Counted from the first letter of the stretch, positions 7,068 to 19,205 are shown. The stretch: DNA of 64,000 bases from Deltaproteobacteria bacterium (GCA_034670305.1 JAXMNT010000024.1:1-64000); one strand, 5' to 3'. Notes: a model not told the origin generated them from the letters alone. Made by a program: numbers and translations.

Positions 7068-7374
7068 TTGCCCTTGCCCCTGCCCTTGCCCCTGCCCTTG
7101 CCCTTGAGTGCAGGCGCGGCGCTTCGGCTTCGGCTTCGGCTTCGGCTTCTGCGTCGGCTTCTGCTTCTGCTTCTGCTTCTGCTTCTCCGTCGGCGTCGGC
7201 GTCGGCTTCTGCGTCGGCGTCGGCTTCGGCGTCGGCTTCGGCTTCGGCTTCGGCGTCGGCGTCGGCGTCGGCTTCGGCTTCGGCTTCGGCTCCGGCGTCG
7301 GCTTCGGCGTCGGCTTCGGCTTCAGATTCGTGAGTGCAGGCCTCCCCGTTCGGGCACGGGCACGGGCACGGGCA
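7068..7374. repeat. Complete hexamer-repeat element R1: C-rich cap, (GGCKTC/TGCTTC)n core, G-rich cap
   Basis: (YTGCCC)n 7068-7106; core 7121-7323; (GGGCAC)n 7352-7374; TGAGTGCAGGC direct repeat at 7105-7115 and 7331-7341. Confidence 0.92.
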
Positions 7375-7394: not shown

Positions 7395-8147
7395 TCACCG
7401 CTTCTTCGGCACCGGCGAGAATCGATCCATCACCCACCGGGTCGCGCCCGGCAGGTGCCGCGCCGCCGCATAGAACTCCGGGTAGATGACCCGATCCCGC
7501 TTGCGCTCCACCGCGCGCACCACCCGCTTCGCGAGCCCCTCCACCGTGCCGGTCGGAAGCATGGCGGGCGGCGCGTCGTACCGGTCCATCGCGGCCGCCG
7601 CCATGTTGGTCTCCACCGGGCCTGGGTACACCGTCACGACGTGCACGCCCGCCTTCGCGACCTCCGCCCGGAGCGCTTCACTCGCCGCCGCGAGGCCCGC
7701 CTTCGAGGCGCTGTAGTGGACCATGCCGAGGGTCGGCGCGATGCCCGCGAGCGAGGCCACGTCGACGATCGCACCATGGCCGCGTTCGATCATGCCGGGA
7801 AGGACTCGGGCATGCAGGCGCAGCGGTGCGAGCAGATTCAATCGGAGCAGCCGCTCCCCCTCGTCGACCGGCACATCCACCGTCTGCGCCACGATCTGGA
7901 TGCCGGCGTTGTTGATGCAGATGTCCACCGGGCCGAAACCGGCTTCTGCGCGATCGACCACGCCGTCGATCGAATCGAGCACCGTGAGGTCGGCCGAGAT
8001 CACCTGCGCGCGTCCGAGTTCGGTCGCGAGCGTTTCGAGTTTGCCCACCGAACGGGCGACCAGCGAGACCTGATCGCCACGCGAAGAGAAAGGGCGCGCG
8101 AGCGCTTCGCCGATTCCCGAACTGGCGCCCGTGACGAGTACATGCAT
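7395..8147 (-). CDS. Short-chain dehydrogenase/reductase (SDR)
   Basis: TGASSGIG, NNAG, YSASK (YxxxK), PGPVET. Confidence 0.93.
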   Translation of the reverse strand: MHVLVTGASSGIGEALARPFSSRGDQVSLVARSVGKLETLATELGRAQVISADLTVLDSIDGVVDRAEAGFGPVDICINNAGIQIVAQTVDVPVDEGERLLRLNLLAPLRLHARVLPGMIERGHGAIVDVASLAGIAPTLGMVHYSASKAGLAAASEALRAEVAKAGVHVVTVYPGPVETNMAAAAMDRYDAPPAMLPTGTVEGLAKRVVRAVERKRDRVIYPEFYAAARHLPGATRWVMDRFSPVPKKR

Positions 8148-8189
8148 GCGGGCGAGCGTAGCAGGACCGCCACGCGGTTCAGCGTGCCG

Positions 8190-10616
8190 TCACGGCCGGA
8201 AGTGCCATTGCTCCATGCCGGTGCCGAACATCATGTCCGCGGGCACGTCGGACCAGCCGACGAGGGCAGGGTCGGCGAGGATGCGTTGGGCGACAAAGAC
8301 GCACGGAAGGTTGGGCAGGCGTTCGGTGGTCAGGGCCAGCAGGGCATCGCGGAGTTGACGGCGGCGTTCTGGGTAGAGCGCGTGTTTCTCTCGCTCCACC
8401 AGATCGTGGATGTCGTCGGTGTAGGCGTCGTGGCGTACGTCGGTCGCGTAGGCGCCTTGGCTCAGTGGGAGGCTCCAGTAGCGGCGCGGCAAGGCGTCGC
8501 GGGCCCCGCGAAGGATGTGGAGCAAGAGTCCGCCGTGGCCCTGATCGAGGTACGCGCGGTGCGTGCTCGGAATGGTCCGCACGCGCACGACCCATCCCAT
8601 CGCCCGCAGGTCGGGCACGAGGACCTCGCCGAGGCGTTGGTCCATTTCGGTTTCCGCCGTGATGAGGTCGATGGTCGACCCCACCAGACCGAGGCGCTCC
8701 ATCTCGGCGCGGGCGACGGCGGGCTCGTAGGGGGTGATCGTCGCACCGGGCGGCAGGTCGGAGACGGGTGCGTGGGCGACGCGTCCCGCGTCTCCGTAGA
8801 CCTCGCGCGCGATGCGCTCGCGGTTGAGGCCGCGCAGCATCGCGCGACGCACCTCCAGCCGACCGAGCAGCGGGTGGTTCATGTCCGGGTTGAGGAACGT
8901 GAAGAACGGAGACGCTTGAATGTGCACCGCGTCGGGGCGTGTGCGTCGAAGTTCGAGGGCCTGGTCCATCGTGATCGCGTTCGGGATGGTGAGGTCGATC
9001 TCACCGGCTTCGAACGCGCGGATGAGCGCTTCCGAATCCGCGACCTGGATTTCGATCCGCTCGAGGTTGCCTGGGCTCCCTGGGAACTCCGGGTTGCGCT
9101 CGGCGACTGCGCGCGTGCCGGCTTCGAACTCGACGACGCGGTAGGGGCCGAGACCTGGGTGCGGGTTCGCGCGCCGGAAGTCGCGAAGTGCGTCGTACCC
9201 CCCGTCCCGAAACGTCTCTTCGAGCACGTGCGAGGGCCAGACGAGCGGGGTCTCCAGTGCTTCGGCGAGCCGACCGTCCCACGTCACCACGAGCGTGCGA
9301 TCGTCGGGCGCTTGCCAGCGCACCGCGTGCTCTGGCTCGTAGGCGTCCCATGGGAGGGTGAGGTCGCGCGCGACCACGGGCCGACCGTCCGACCAGCGCA
9401 CGCCTTCGCGCAGCTTCCACGTGATCTCGAGCCGTCCGTCGGCGAGGAACCGCACGAAGTCGTTGTCGATGCCGGGGGTGTGCTCGAGGAACCAGGGCTT
9501 GTGGGTGTGGTCGATGTCTTCGTGCAGCGGCTCCCAGTACGCGACCGCGTTCAGGGGACTGCCGAGCAAGCTCGTCATTCGATTGGCGCCGATGCGCAGT
9601 ACCGGGCGGGCCGACTCTGCGCGGGTGTCGGTGGGGAGTGGCTGGGGCTGCAGCACCTCGACGACCGCCGGTCCGGGGATCGCCGCCCACACGGCCACGA
9701 AGGCGCCGACTGGGAGCACCACCCGCGCGGTGCGGTCGAGCCAGAGCGAGGCCCGCGGCTTTGCGGTTCGGACGAGCGAATGGGAGACGATGCTGACCAC
9801 CAGTGCGATCGAGCTCAGGAAGTAGGCGATGAGAAAGAGAATGTCGGCGAGCGTCAGGTAAGAGACCGACGGCAACGAATCGGCGACCGTGAACTGAAAC
9901 GCGAAACACGAGAGCAGCGCGGTCACGCCGATCGAGCTTCGCGGGGCGATGGTCTCTCCGGGCAAGAAGAGCGCGACCAACGAAACGAGCGCGATGATGG
10001 CCAAGGGCAGGAACAGTTTCAGTGCGACGGTCACGATCGGGCGTTTGAGCATGACCTCGTAGCCGACCCGATGAACGGTCGTCGGCAGTCCTTCGCGGGA
10101 CAGCAGGCCGAGGTCGGAGCTCACGGTGCGTTCGGTGACGCGGGGATGAAACTCTGGTTCGTAGAGCCAGTCGGTCAGGCTGAACCGTTCGGCCATGCCG
10201 CTGCCTGCCGCGTCGGGCACGAGCCGCCCATACTCTTCGGGCAACTCGAGCACGACCGCCACGCGCTGCTCGTCGTAGGGAAACCGCTGCATCGGGAACT
10301 CGCCCCGCAGCGTGCCGCGCATGCGCCAGCGCGCGGTGTGCCAGTCGCGGTCGCTCGCTTCTCCCAGCGGGGTGCGGTTCAGGGTGGCTGCGTTGGCGAC
10401 TTGGAGTTGCTCCGGATCGAAGTCCCCCCGCCACTTCGCCCAGAGCTCGAAGTCGACGTCGACCATCCCGTCCCTCAGCTGAAAGCGGGTGACGTCGTGC
10501 AAGTACACGCCGACGTACACGTCGCGTGAGGCATCCGCGTGGGCGGGGGCGTGGCCGAGGAGAAGCACCAGCAGGACGGCGGCCGCGGTTGCGATCTTGG
10601 CGCTGGACTCAGGCAT
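8190..10616 (-). CDS. Pentameric ligand-gated ion channel (GLIC/ELIC-like) fused to C-terminal family-5 ABC solute-binding domain
   Basis: Signal peptide (AHA-D); VYVGVYL, FPYDEQ Pro-loop; M1 KLFLPL, M2 [20 protein letters not shown]3, M4; then [33 protein letters not shown] typical of SBP_bac_5. Confidence 0.82.
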
Positions 10617-11691
10617 CGACGCCGATCGCGTCTGCGATGTTGTCGAAGCCGGCGTCCGTGACCGCCTGGGCGAGGCCTTGGCAGATGCGCTTCGGCAGGA
10701 GCGGGCCGCCGTAGATGAACGCGGTGTAGAGCTGGACGAGGGTGGCGCCCGCGCGGATCCGCGCCCACGCGTCCTCGGCGTTCTCGATGCCACCCACCGA
10801 GATCAAGAGCAACGAGTCGCCGGCGACGCGGCGGAGGCGCCGGAGCACATCGAGGCTCCGGGTCTTGAGCGGTGCGCCGCTGAGTCCGCCCGCGCCGAGT
10901 GCTTCCACCGTCGCGCTCGGCGTCTGAAGACCGCTGCGATCGATCGTGGTGTTGGTGGCGAGCACTCCGTCGAGCTCGAGCTCCATCGCCATGCGCGCGA
11001 CCGCCTCGATGTCGGCGTCGGCGAGGTCCGGTGCGATCTTCACGAGAAGCGGCACGCGCGCGTCGCTGTGCGCGTCGAGTGCGTCGCGGACCGCGCGCAG
11101 GAGCGGCGCGAGTTTCTCCACCGCCTGCAGGTCGCGCAGGCCCGGCGTGTTCGGACTCGAGACGTTGACGACGAAGTAGTCGGCGTGGCGGGCGAGCCGC
11201 TCGGTCGAGAGCACGTAGTCCGCGATGGCTTCGTCTTCCGGCACCACTTTGGTCTTGCCGATGTTCACGCCGACCAGCACCTCGCGTGGTTGGCTCAGCC
11301 GCGGCACCGCGGCGAGCGAGCCGCCGTTGTTGAAGCCCATTCGGTTGAGGAGCGCGCGGTCGGATTCGAGCCGAAAGAGGCGGGGCTTGGGGTTGCCCTC
11401 CTGGGGTTGCCCGGTGAGCGTTCCGATCTCGACGTGGCCGAACCCAAGCGCCCCGAGTGCTTCGAACCCGACCGCGTCCTTGTCGAACCCTGCGGCCAAT
11501 CCGAGCGGGTTCGGAAAGGTGCGTCCGAGCGCGCGCACTTCGAGTCGCGGGTCGCGCACCTGGGCCATCGAGCGCAGTCCGCCGGTGACGAGCGGGACCC
11601 TGGCGGCTCGACGGAGCGCACCGAACGCGAGGTGGTGGGCCACCTCGGCGTCCATCCGGTAGAGGAGCGGCCGAATCAACCGGTACAACAT
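10609..11691 (-). CDS. pyrD: Quinone-dependent dihydroorotate dehydrogenase (class 2)
   Basis: [42 protein letters not shown]. Confidence 0.96.
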
Positions 11692-11767
11692 GCTGGGACC
11701 ATGCCTCAACCCGGTCGGGAAGGCACGGCTGGGCTGCTCGGATGGGCTCGGCGCCCAGCCCCAGGCG

Positions 11768-13096
11768 CTACCAGTGTTCGTGCGCCCAGAGCGACTCGAC
11801 CGGCGGCCGCGCGCGCACGACCTTCATCAACGCGCCGTCCACCAGGACCTCCGCGGCGGGCACCCGCGCGTTGTAGGTCATCGACATCTCGCGACCGTAG
11901 GCGCCGGCGCCGTAGACCGCGAGCAAGTCGCCGGCCTGGACTTGCGGCAGGGGTCGCTCGAGCGCGAGGAAGTCGCCGCTCTCGCAGACCGGTCCGACCA
12001 CGTCGCAGGGACTGGTCTGTACGCCGAGCGTGGCGCTCGGAAGCGCCACCGGCGCGATGGCGTGGTAGGCCTCGTAGAGCGCGGGGCGAAGCAGCTCCGT
12101 CATGGCGGCGTCCACCACCACGAAGCGCCGCGTGCCCTGCGTCTTCACGTAGAGCACCCGGGTCAAGAGCACGCCTGCGGGGCCGACGAGCGCACGGCCT
12201 GGCTCGGTGATCAGATCGAACTCCGTCGCGCCCGACTGTCGGAGGCCTGCGGCGATGGCGCGCCCGAACTCGAGGGGCGGCGGGTAGGGGGCCGCTTCGC
12301 AGCCGTAGTGCATCGGCCAGCCGCCGCCGACGTCCAGGCTGCGCAACGACGCGCCCGCCGCGCGGCACTCGAGCGCGAATCGACCGAGGATCGCCACCGC
12401 TTCGGTCAGCGGCGCGGTGGAGCCGAGTTGGGAACCGATGTGGCACGCCACGCCTTCGAGCTGGAGGTCCGGGCTCGAGACGATGCGCCCGAGCACGCTG
12501 CGCGCGACGTCGAGCTCCAGGCCGAACTTGGTGCCGTGCAACCCCGTCGCGATGTACGGATGCGTCTCCGCGTCGACGTCCGGGTTCACCCGCAGGGCGA
12601 TGCGCGCCTTGGTACCCAGCGCCCGCGCTTCGGAGGCGACGACGTCCAGCTCGGGCACGCTCTCGACGTGGATCGCGCGGATGCCAGATTCGATCGCAGC
12701 GCGGATCTCCTCCGCACGTTTGCCGACGCCGCTGAACACGATGCGGGACGGATCGATGCCTGCGGTCTTCGCCCGGAGAAGCTCCCCGCCGGACACGATG
12801 TCGGCGCCGCAGCCGTGACCGGCCAAGCGCGCGAGAATCGCCATGTTGGCGTTGGCCTTGATGGCGTAGGCGATGAGCACGTCTCGATCGGTGGCCGCCG
12901 CCATCGCCGACCGGATGGCGCCGAACGCCGTGTCGATCTCTGCGCCGGAGTACACGTACGTCGGTGTCTGCTGGGCGAGCGCGATCGCGGCGAGGCTCAC
13001 GCCCTCGCAGTGCAACTTGCCGTCCTTGCGCGGGAACGAAGCCACTTCGGGCACCTCGGTGCGTGCGAAGGAAGGCGCTTTCGGTGCGTCGCCCAT
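11768..13096 (-). CDS. lysA: Diaminopimelate decarboxylase
   Basis: TPTYVY, YAIKAN (PLP Lys), [24 protein letters not shown]. Confidence 0.95.
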
Positions 13097-14549: not shown

Positions 14550-15003
<454 letters not shown>

Positions 15004-15018
15004 CGAGACGGAGGCCGC

Positions 15019-17217
15019 CTAGCGGGGCGGGATTCGGAGTTCGATGCGTCGGAGGAGGCGGGCGCCGGCGGGGAGGGCGAAGGCGTCGATGGCGACGGCG
15101 GCGAGGGCGGCGACGCCGGGGGCGACCCAGCCGAGGGCGGCGCCGGCGACGAGCGGCGCACCGGCGCCCACGGAGAGCAGCACGCCGCGGAGTGCTTCGC
15201 TTCGGGCGGCGCGCGCCATCCAGAGGGCAGCGGAGGCGTCGCGAATGTCGGTCGTCGCCAGCGCGATGCCTCGGTCGGCGCCGGGGCTGCCAGCGGCGCT
15301 GAGCAGGATGGGGACTTCGGCGGCGGCCAGCATCTCGTCGTCGGCCCCGCGCCGGCCCACCGCGGCGACGAGCCCACCAGAGGCGCCGAGCCGGCGCACT
15401 TCTTCGCCGCGTTCTTCGGGAAGCAGCTCGGCCTTCACGAGGTTGACGTCGAGTTGCCGCGCGATGACTTCGACGGTGGCGCGGCTGTCCCCGGAGACGA
15501 GGACCACGACGATGCGCTGGTCGAACATGCGCTGCACCGCGGCCCGCGCACCGATGCCGACCTCGTCGCGGAGCGAGAGCACCGCGCGCACGCGTCCTCC
15601 CACACCCAAGAAGAGCGCGGTGTGGCCCCGGCTCTCGCCGCGCGCGGCGGCGGCATCGGCGACGGCCACGCTGATGCTGTGATCGAGGAGCAACTGTCGG
15701 TTGCCGAGCACCGCCGTCTCCCCCGACGCGGTCAGGGCCGTCACGCCGCGCGCGGGGTGGTGGACGACCCGTCGCACCGTGGCGGGCGTGAGGCCGTGTG
15801 CTTTGGCGTAGCGGACGACGGCGTCGCCGAGCGGATGGCTCGCGGCGGCGCCTTCCATGCCCGCGGCGAGTGACATCAGCGGACCGGCGTCTTCGTCGCC
15901 CACGACGCTGATCTCGGTGACTTCCGGCCGGCCTTCGGTGATGGTGCCGGCGGTTCCGAGGGCGGTGGTCGCGACCCGGCCAGCGTCTTCGAGGGCGCGC
16001 GGGTCATGAAAGACGATGCCGCGCGCGGCCGCGCTCGTGGCGGCGGCCACGAGCGGGGCTTCCGCGGAGCGACGCGCGGCGAGCAGCGGCGCGGCGACCA
16101 GCACAGCGGCGGCGGCGGTCAGCGCGCCCGCGAGGCCCGGTTCGCCGGTCAACGCCAGTCCGAAGAGCGCGAAGAGCACCGCCGCCACCCCGCCCCACCG
16201 GGCGACCTGCTCGGCGAGTCGGACCACGCGTGCGCCGCCGCGTTGGGCTGTGCCGAACTCGGCGCCGCGACAGATGGCGCGATCCTCTCCCACTCGGGTG
16301 GCAAGCAACCGGAGCGCGCCTTCGGTGACCCGGGCACCGGCGAGCACGGAGTCGCCCGCCGAAACGCGCACCGGCGTCTGCGCGGTCGTGTGGGTGAGCA
16401 CCCAGCCGTCGCCGCCCTGGACGACTCCGTCGACCCCCACGACTTCCCCTTCGACCGCGAAGATCTCTTCGCCGGTTCGGATCCGGCTCGTGCGTACTTC
16501 TTCGTAGCGCAGTTGCGGGTCTTGATCTTCGATCGGCACCCGCACTCGAACCGGCAGTGGCCGTCGCAGCTCGCGCACCACGGCGTCGACCGGCTGTCGC
16601 GCCTTCGCGTCGAGCCAAGTGCGCACGATCATGGCGCCGGCGGCGACCGCGGCCCCGGCCAAGAGCGAGCGCGCCTCCGCGTCCTGAACCCGCGCGATGA
16701 ACGCCGCGATGGCAGCGAGGATGGCCCCGGCCGGGCCCACCGCGCAGGGAAGCCAGCCGACCTGGCGCGCGATCGATCGACTTCGAACGAGCGCGATCAA
16801 CGCCACCAAGACGGTGATGCCGGCGGACGCGGCCGCGATGCTCTCGCGGCCGGACGCGAACGCCAACCCGAAGCCGATGGCGCAGAGAGCGAGGGTGGCC
16901 AGCGGCGCGGCGGGTGGCGGCGTGACGTTCAAGGACGCGAACGAGGAGATGTCCGCCGAGGTCGAGGCCGACGCGAGGTCGATGCGGGGGCGCGTCGCTT
17001 CGCGGACGCGCTCGGGCACGCTGCGGGGCGGGAGCGGTCGTGCGGCACGGGCTTCGTGGGCACGGGAGCCCCCTTGAAACGCGCGCAGGCAGGCCTCGCT
17101 GCAGAGGTATCGGACCCCATCGTCGAGGGCGAGCACCCGGGCAGCGCGGAGCGGGTCGGTGTCTTGGCCACACGCGGGGCAAGGAACCGGATCGAGCTGT
17201 GGGCGCGCAGGGTGCAC
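15019..17217 (-). CDS. Heavy-metal P1B-type ATPase-like protein with N-terminal TRASH/YHS-like motif; catalytic motifs degenerate
   Basis: CPACG..TDP...YLCSEAC; overall P-ATPase layout with SHPLG, AELLPE, SGD; GTAGT replaces DKTGT, TTAQ replaces TGES, AAP replaces CPC. Confidence 0.75.
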
Positions 17218-19048: not shown

Positions 19049-19205
19049 GAGTCGGCTTCGGCTTCGGCTTCGGCTTCGGCTTCGGAGTCGGCTTCGGAGT
19101 CGGCTTCGGCTTCGGCTTCGGAGTCGGCTTCGGAGTCGGCTTCGCCTAGTCGGCTTCGGCTTCTACTTCGGAGTCAGCTTCGGCTTCGGGGTCGGCTTCG
19201 GAGTC
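19049..19205. repeat. Hexamer core tract R3 (GGCTTC/GGAGTC)n
   Basis: Direct reading; no G/C cap seen. Confidence 0.9.

Follow-up and report, generated by a model that had tools for sequence, protein, structure and literature searches.

A Pro-loop channel subunit with a family-5 solute-binding domain after M4 in Deltaproteobacteria: a candidate sensor-gated channel

The fused gene and its channel part

A 64,000-nucleotide stretch of DNA from a Deltaproteobacteria bacterium (GCA_034670305.1, JAXMNT010000024.1:1-64000), hereafter the window, harbors a gene that joins a Pro-loop channel subunit to a C-terminal family-5 solute-binding domain, here called the clamshell. The gene occupies positions 8190..10616 on the minus strand, the strand of all its features given below, and its assignment draws on the open reading frame, Pfam, NCBIfam, phmmer, AlphaFold, and structure matching. 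The frame runs from an ATG at 10616 to a stop codon at 8192-8190 and encodes 808 amino acids with zero internal stops. An initial annotation made from the sequence had described one uninterrupted frame of this length with no strand stated, and this frame is confirmed. The region 7900-11800 is unbroken, with zero differences, in contigs from four of four sequencing runs, all of one study that is possibly the source of this DNA. Independent support for an intact fusion comes from a genome scan that returned 76 related loci, all metagenome-assembled. Both domains lie in a single frame in 69 of them, five run into a contig edge before reaching the binding domain, and two are broken (L073, L076). 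The claim that no stop or frameshift separates the domains is thus upheld.

The chain opens with a predicted signal peptide (residues 1-28; 10533..10616), recognized from sequence and hydropathy by a hydrophobic core and an AHA motif before the likely cut. An extracellular beta-sandwich domain follows (residues 29-192; 10041..10532), which ends on the pre-M1 arginine Arg192 and is supported by AlphaFold strands and structure matches to GluCl and GLIC. Within it, the beta8-beta9 segment (residues 135-156; 10149..10214) carries conserved residues specific to fused proteins and is a candidate docking surface. This segment corresponds to loop F of the fold. The Pro-loop motif FPYD (residues 112-115; 10272..10283) is identified by its conservation in 142 sequences and by the motif definition in Table 1 of PMC4795631. 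The transmembrane domain M1-M4 (residues 193-312; 9681..10040) is placed by hydropathy, AlphaFold, and family alignment, with helices modelled at residues 194-217, 223-247, 256-283, and 287-312. The family alignment marks the second of these as the pore helix M2 (residues 223-247; 9876..9950). The M1 proline is Pro204, and the M2-M3 loop reads LPSVSYLT (residues 248-255). A proline-rich linker (residues 313-335; 9612..9680), delimited by family alignment and modelled with a predicted local distance difference test (pLDDT) score of 78-94, leads into the complete family-5 domain (residues 336-808, 473 amino acids), which together with the stop codon covers 8190..9611 and is assigned by Pfam (PF00496) and structure matching. 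The signal peptide, FPYD motif, M1 proline, LP..SY.T loop, four helices, and proline-rich linker described initially were all located in the sequence or the model. The AlphaFold model of the 808-residue chain reaches a pLDDT of 92.8 and a predicted template modelling (pTM) score of 0.84.

Judged by hidden Markov models, the identity of the channel part is weak. Neur_chan_memb matches at E 5e-4 and 20.8 bits, below the curated Pfam cut-off of 28.1 that several relatives do pass, Neur_chan_LBD gives no Pfam match at E <= 0.01 in the 808-residue protein, and NCBIfam LGIC_1 (E 1.3e-13) is likewise below its cut-off. The assignment therefore rests on phmmer matches to GABA-A receptors and on structure. 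A GABA-A receptor (chimera) is matched over residues 107-312 (E 2e-10) and DeCLIC over residues 180-310 (E 1e-8). Model residues 26-316 superpose on GluCl (Z 18.0, root-mean-square deviation (rmsd) 3.5, 277 aligned) and on GLIC (Z 17.9, rmsd 3.2, 275 aligned). The domain calls of the initial annotation thus hold by profile for SBP_bac_5, fall short of the cut-off for Neur_chan_memb, and fail for Neur_chan_LBD, with the channel fold established by structure instead. The Pfam miss is a limit of the models and is the likely reason why databases name the fused proteins 'ABC transporter substrate-binding protein' (ABC, ATP-binding cassette).

Conservation was assessed in 207 near-full-length sequences, 142 after thinning at 80% identity, drawn from a partly redundant pool of 326. 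All seven superfamily core residues, as listed by Jaiteh et al. (PMC4795631, Table 1), are present and 95-100% conserved, namely F112 (97%), P113 (99%), and D115 (99%) of the Pro-loop, the beta9 tryptophan W150 (100%), the pre-M1 arginine R192 (99%), the M1 proline P204 (100%), and the M2-M3 proline P249 (100%). The protein belongs to the Pro-loop superfamily by all sequence and fold tests run, the Pfam cut-off excepted. The disulfide pair of animal Cys-loop receptors is absent, with zero cysteines in residues 100-120, and the M3-M4 loop spans 1-3 residues between the modelled helices, which leaves no intracellular domain.

The pore helix is equally well conserved in the family alignment, with the 0' arginine (R226) at 94%, 6' threonine at 94%, 9' leucine (L235) at 90%, 13' alanine at 99%, phenylalanine (81%) or tyrosine (11%) at 16', and the 23' proline at 100%. 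Position -2' is glutamate or aspartate in 79% of the family, as in GLIC, where the acidic -2' residue forms the cation filter. Most family members would on this basis be cation-conducting. The present copy carries alanine there (Ala-Pro-Arg), a feature it has in common with two of its 24 nearest relatives, and the cation prediction does not extend to it. The extracellular domain has a mean pairwise identity of 51%, M1-M3 of 46%, and the clamshell of 34%. One channel gene of this type was found per genome, and this gene encodes the sole such channel found in its own genome, which favors a homopentamer.

The clamshell and its kinase relatives

The C-terminal domain matches SBP_bac_5 over residues 393-692 (E 1e-37, 130.6 bits against a cut-off of 32.4). 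Residues 334-807 align with 5u4o (Z 28.6, rmsd 3.5, 436 aligned), the top Foldseek match is Thermus HB8 OppA (2d5w), and Z reaches up to 28.8 among family-5 structures. Both lobes are complete, and the family-5 assignment made initially stands. The cleft is modelled open, at an rmsd of 3.1 to 5za4 (unliganded) versus 4.4 to 5z99.

The suggestion that the ligand is a peptide or nickel finds no support in comparisons. Near-equal Z scores, at 12-20% identity, were obtained with solved peptide, nickel, sialic-acid, opine, and glutathione binders, and NCBIfam equivalogs score far below their cut-offs (Opp4A 39 bits versus 650; NikA 35 versus 393). In OppA and DppA, the tryptophan of the pocket strand and the aspartate next to it have roles in peptide binding. 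The AapF strand bearing the pocket tryptophan aligns to residues 696-710, where this protein has zero tryptophans. 'Peptide/nickel' is a database label, unsupported as a ligand class. Arginines occur in the pocket strand of the near clade (n=82), at R703 in 59% and R706 in 76%, and kinase-borne copies vary there. As a weakly held guess, these arginines hint at a solute that may be anionic rather than a plain oligopeptide.

A protein search returned 102 matches, of which the 91 near-full-length ones were aligned at 27-58% identity. Titles of the 76 genome loci name Myxococcota (61), Deltaproteobacteria (6), Proteobacteria (3), Rickettsiales (3), Verrucomicrobiales (2), or no taxon (1), and distant members are named Planctomycetota (P0185) and Spirochaetes (P0154, P0160). 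The architecture is uniform, in line with the order first read from this gene: the channel comes first in 228 of the 228 two-domain sequences of the pool. An automatically named ESM Atlas cluster comprises 171 members with both domains. Among 40 genomes of relatives, nine whole copies and one split copy were found, each single-copy, and a phylum scan in which three candidates were scored per genome gave at least 7 of 300 genomes. The copies at G011:C2:198186-200557, G482:C27, L073, and L076 are split, shortened, or stop-bearing, through decay or sequence error.

A channel-domain tree (66 rows) places the 34 family-5 fusions on one side of a branch with a Shimodaira-Hasegawa-like approximate likelihood-ratio (SH-aLRT) support of 92. 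A single origin is compatible with this tree. Channels with N-terminal TAXI-type (NMT1_3: P0202, P0206, P0209, P0210, P0228, P0232) or Peripla_BP_6 domains (P0207, P0240) are among the nearest relatives devoid of a family-5 domain. P0174 and P0185 are divergent channel-clamshell fusions whose clamshell adjoins stand-alone family-5 proteins in trees, and they may represent either the earliest branch or a second fusion. Other variants include a fusion lacking part of the clamshell (P0155, 708 amino acids), an AcrB-type fragment joined to the clamshell end that is probably an assembly chimera (P0218), and a channel match of 30% (residues 20-304) within an 831-residue frame at G007:C5:342352-343218, possibly another divergent fusion. 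A clamshell-only search for longer fusions yielded eight channel-length relatives and four weak, distant multi-domain proteins. The large proteins P0248-P0251 combine kinase, cyclase, or other N-terminal domains with AAA_16 and distant family-5 domains, two of them in P0248.

Some proteins found by profile search match the clamshell only, at 35-40% identity, and carry a different N-terminal part. Eleven clusters from ENA, JGI, and Logan are fusions to Ser/Thr kinases (P0143, P0145, P0150, P0152, P0158, P0274-P0277, P0279, and P0282; P0282 comprises 10 member sequences, P0274 four). Pfam confirmed both kinase and SBP_bac_5 in eight kinase fusions, and catalytic motifs are present in five of the five checked. 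Each kinase fusion has one hydrophobic helix directly before the clamshell. A cytoplasmic kinase followed by one helix places the clamshell outside, in agreement with the four-helix topology of the channel, whose C-terminus emerges from M4 on the side of the extracellular domain. The periplasmic location proposed initially is thereby corroborated by two membrane arrangements. On kinases, the clamshell can only be an input.

At a clamshell profile score of at least 250 bits, 202 proteins were retained, of which 173 are channel-fused, 12 are kinase-fused (in the 11 clusters), and 17 appear to be fragments that lack a signal peptide. These 202 proteins include no recognizable secreted stand-alone member, although the searches were seeded with fused proteins and two were length-limited, so that such a member could be missed. 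Kinase clamshells share a branch with the clamshell of this protein at an SH-aLRT of 99-100 and are nested among channel clamshells in the best trees. An approximately unbiased (AU) test of a channel-only clade gave p 1.1e-5 with P0174 and P0185 and p 0.109 without them, the group having been named post hoc from the tree. A transfer from channel to kinase is one possible reading of the nesting. As to the genomic context of kinase fusions, one metagenome scan returned no relative and the other gave 80 kinase-only loci, none with a clamshell. Of the 20 best of 31 genome matches, 18 are channel-fused, two are cut by a contig end, and none is kinase-fused.

Conservation within the clamshell is uneven. 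The pocket strand (residues 700-707) and the first loop (residues 345-360) vary, and the conserved positions, mostly glycine, proline, tryptophan, and salt bridges, are typical of a fold core. Together with the missing canonical pocket tryptophan, this pattern would suit a domain that has lost solute binding and has a structural task as a cap, a spacer, or a tether (to the cell wall, for instance), and that might make the channel responsive to envelope strain. Such a role appears improbable. The lobes are complete and the modelled cleft is open, closer to unliganded structures, and recruitment to receptor-type kinases argues for signal input. A variable pocket is moreover expected, because family-5 proteins have no fixed ligand class, as described in the available part of PMC10443332.

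Gene neighborhood and transport readings

Directly upstream of the fusion lies pyrD (quinone-dependent dihydroorotate dehydrogenase; 10609..11709, minus strand), whose stop overlaps the fusion start by 8 bases (10609-10616). A short-chain dehydrogenase (SDR) gene follows 42 bases downstream (7395..8147, minus strand) and is not a conserved neighbor, with one weak match in the 76 loci. In this window argH, lysA, pyrD, the fusion, and the SDR gene share one strand with short gaps, an arrangement that makes co-transcription with pyrD plausible at this locus. A common function with pyrD was considered and rejected, as pyrD stands directly upstream on the same strand in three of 76 loci and is present in five. 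The overlap noted initially is real, whereas the biosynthetic operon link drawn from it is not a family trait. A promoter and terminator scan returned sites no more numerous than in shuffled sequence. Among 666 neighboring genes, called with a simple codon model, the most widespread cluster is common to at most 10 of the 76 loci, and no catabolic gene is conserved nearby.

The absence of an adjacent ABC permease, first remarked on for this locus, extends to the related loci scanned. BPD_transp_1 permeases were found in none of 123 direct neighbors (61 of 73 upstream and 62 of 66 downstream, the rest being pyrD or near-duplicates), and the genome's own OppC-type permease used as a query gave zero matches in the 76 loci (952 kb). 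ABC ATPase-like genes occur within 7 kb in eight loci, and the three tested are of generic or branched-chain types. The host genome does encode OppC-type permeases on contigs C4 and C5, and databases use an ABC binding-protein name. Both facts would accommodate a clamshell that acts as the membrane-anchored binding protein of an unlinked ABC permease, with the channel part separate or reduced to an anchor. This arrangement is scarcely credible, given that the C4 permease is adjacent to a binding protein of its own (26% identity to the fused clamshell over 223 residues, E 0.03) and that the channel gating residues are under strong selection. The clamshell is a family-5 domain and not an ABC importer subunit.

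Uptake is the usual task of family-5 proteins, and with no linked permease the pore is the only partner in sight. An uptake device, in which the clamshell delivers solute to the pentameric pore and no signaling receptor is involved, would also fit the uncharged -2'/-1' filter of this copy. The pore lining of serine, threonine, leucine, alanine, and phenylalanine is nevertheless that of a small-ion channel, and known family-5 ligands are bulky. With no conserved catabolic gene nearby and kinase fusions that cannot transport, direct uptake seems very doubtful.

Several loci show further features. Five of Myxococcales/Archangium type (L052:3626-5583, L058, L061, L062, L066) share three Pfam-less genes (~160, 248, and 234 amino acids) and a divergent GH3-family gene upstream, which may be plain synteny. 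A degenerate family-5-like gene below the Pfam cut-off lies at L080:1183-3248 (G000 contig C22), and its stop overlaps the start of a sensor-looking membrane protein whose first 222 residues give zero Pfam matches. Elsewhere in the window, a P-type ATPase-like protein (15019-17217, minus strand) carries LGTAGTIT at the phosphorylation motif, usually DKTGT, and is possibly inactive. Tandem arrays of a 6-base unit (GCTTCG and variants, 15-37 copies) at 7121-7323, 14550-14682, 14771-14994, and 19052-19201 sit between genes or at gene ends.

Proposed gating and relation to known systems

Sequence and model together lead us to favor, with slightly better than even confidence, a Pro-loop channel, likely homopentameric, in the inner membrane, with five periplasmic clamshells as gating sensors. 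A sensing or modulating role of the clamshell in the broader sense, which includes the alternative of gating at the channel's own extracellular domain discussed below, is held with considerable confidence, and the sensor role proposed initially remains the most likely reading. In the proposed mechanism, the stiff 24-residue linker would position each clamshell against the outside of the extracellular domain, with docking probably at the side of beta8-beta9 (loop F) and loop C. Ligand binding is known to close family-5 proteins. In this channel, a small solute would, once bound, close the clamshell and shift the extracellular domain, and the conserved Pro-loop/pre-M1/M2-M3 interface could then open a hydrophobic gate at 9'/13'/16'.

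Several observations bear on docking. The linker has a family median of 24 residues (range 17-40) and contains 23% proline. Residues F145, S146, T148, Y152, P154, and F156 are found in 85-97% of 142 fused proteins and in less than 30% of 32 unfused ones, and E175 (loop C), D41, K61, W92, and W97 are further near-fixed positions particular to the fused family. A pTM of 0.84 for parts of 290 and 470 residues implies a confident relative placement of the domains. The AlphaFold model of kinase fusion P0274, whose kinase and clamshell parts cannot touch across the membrane, has a pTM of 0.66, with both domains at a pLDDT above 90 and a disordered linker below 50. The difference is a hint that the clamshell may pack on the channel. 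A mutual-information analysis of coevolution in the 207 sequences was discarded, as its top pairs were clade markers and not contacts.

Other points weigh against a gating clamshell. It is less conserved than the extracellular domain (34% versus 51%), and its pocket-lining positions vary. A variable clamshell fits varied ligands, but it fits equally a modulatory or structural role, or gating at the extracellular domain. M4 is peripheral to the pore, so that a pull through M4 alone would be a weak lever. The fused-specific residues may be explained in part by the fused proteins being more closely related to one another, and the pTM control is confounded by alignment depth (91 full-length rows versus 11) and by more disorder in the kinase. 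Occurrence is also patchy (30 of 300 genomes of the order), and at least three copies look broken (L073, L076, G011).

The strongest alternative places the gate's trigger in the channel's own extracellular domain, which would respond to a small ligand, pH, or Ca2+, while the clamshell captures, concentrates, or hands over the ligand or tunes kinetics. Conservation is highest in the extracellular domain (51%), and the near-invariant W59, K61, W92, D135, D168, and E175 could form a separate site. A 'preliminary concentration' role was proposed for N-terminal binding domains by Tasneem et al. (PMC549065), and in DeCLIC the N-terminal domain appears to make both activation and deactivation faster, according to the available part of PMC12664993. 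This scheme is nonetheless rather unlikely. In the 11 kinase clusters the clamshell is the sole outer domain, with no second site to feed, and it is kept whole in nearly all members of the family. The fuller form of the preferred gating reading, in which outside-docked, M4-tethered clamshells gate the pore and the clamshell is a transferable sensor for ion flux or for a Ser/Thr kinase in myxobacteria, is put forward tentatively, at somewhat less than even confidence.

Fusions of binding proteins to pentameric channels have been in print since 2004, in N-terminal form. Tasneem, Iyer, Jakobsson, and Aravind (Genome Biol 6:R4, PMC549065) described N-terminal fusions of type I periplasmic-binding-protein (PBP-I) domains, operonic PBP-II partners, and a parallel to glutamate receptors. 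The combination of ionotropic glutamate receptor (iGluR)-like sensing with a Cys-loop-type pore put forward in the initial annotation is therefore not new, and what stands of it is the family-5 domain after M4. The present proteins resemble the PBP-I, Cache, or MCP-N pentameric channels of that study in joining a binding-protein domain to a Pro-loop channel, in the proposed chemosensory role, and in occurring as a single gene per genome. The forms described there carry their domain between signal peptide and ligand-binding domain, whereas here it belongs to family 5 and follows M4. DeCLIC from Desulfofustis (PDB 6v4a; PMC12664993) is likewise a multidomain Pro-loop channel with a periplasmic accessory part of about half its mass. 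Its extra lobes, as described in the part of that source available, are N-terminal and calcium-binding and do not form a clamshell solute-binding protein. The same fold (residues 26-316) and signature residues are shared with GLIC, GluCl, and GABA-A receptors, which lack the appended binding domain. Here, in turn, there are no Cys-loop cysteines and no intracellular domain.

Comparison with OppA, DppA, NikA, and AppA shows the full two-lobed family-5 fold but no permease or ATPase partner, a replaced pocket tryptophan, and, in this sample, a constant tether to channel or kinase. The likeness to iGluRs, GluR0, and the engineered EhuB-GluR0 chimera (bioRxiv 10.1101/2021.01.27.428399), a clamshell whose closure gates a pore, is an analogy of working only. 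According to the available part of that preprint, the chimera indicates that a grafted bacterial binding protein can gate a channel. iGluRs and GluR0 are tetrameric, with an unrelated pore and a clamshell wired directly to the pore helices, whereas here the clamshell is attached to M4, which is peripheral, and is separated from the gate by a distinct extracellular domain. For the kinases, the closest parallel is GlnH-GlnX-PknG, in which a solute-binding protein controls a Ser/Thr kinase and which the available part of a 2021 review (PMC8050422) presents as the only characterized binding-protein-stimulated Ser/Thr kinase. That system comprises three proteins, unlike the kinase relatives found here, which unite kinase, one helix, and clamshell in one chain.

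Jaiteh et al. (PMC4795631), in the part available, note unrelated regions C-terminal to M4, which they trimmed, and call for a survey of architectures, and the 2025 DeCLIC paper (PMC12664993) speaks, in its available part, only of N-terminal domains. No literature on the C-terminal family-5 form was found, judging by titles and abstract starts, with figures and supplements outside this scope. The new elements are thus the family-5 domain, its position after M4, and its reuse on receptor-type kinases, the fusion idea itself being about twenty years old. The family is real, conserved, and apparently uncharacterized.

GABA-A and nicotinic receptors have their main structural models in the bacterial pentameric channels. 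To our knowledge, the natural stimuli of these channels are largely unknown, and all members studied are gated via an intersubunit site. The physiological context of DeCLIC, for example, is called poorly characterized in the available part of PMC12664993. The soluble, separable binding domain, which lends itself to production and screening by itself, makes the natural agonist of the present family directly testable. Should the clamshell gate the pore, this input would differ from the intersubunit site and would reach the gate by way of the M4 end and the extracellular domain's outer face, and the architecture would offer a modular scaffold on which to engineer ligand-gated channels. The kinase fusions would represent one-chain versions of binding-protein-controlled Ser/Thr kinases. 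Under the fuller reading given above, one ligand screen would name a natural agonist of a bacterial pentameric channel and of single-chain receptor kinases alike.

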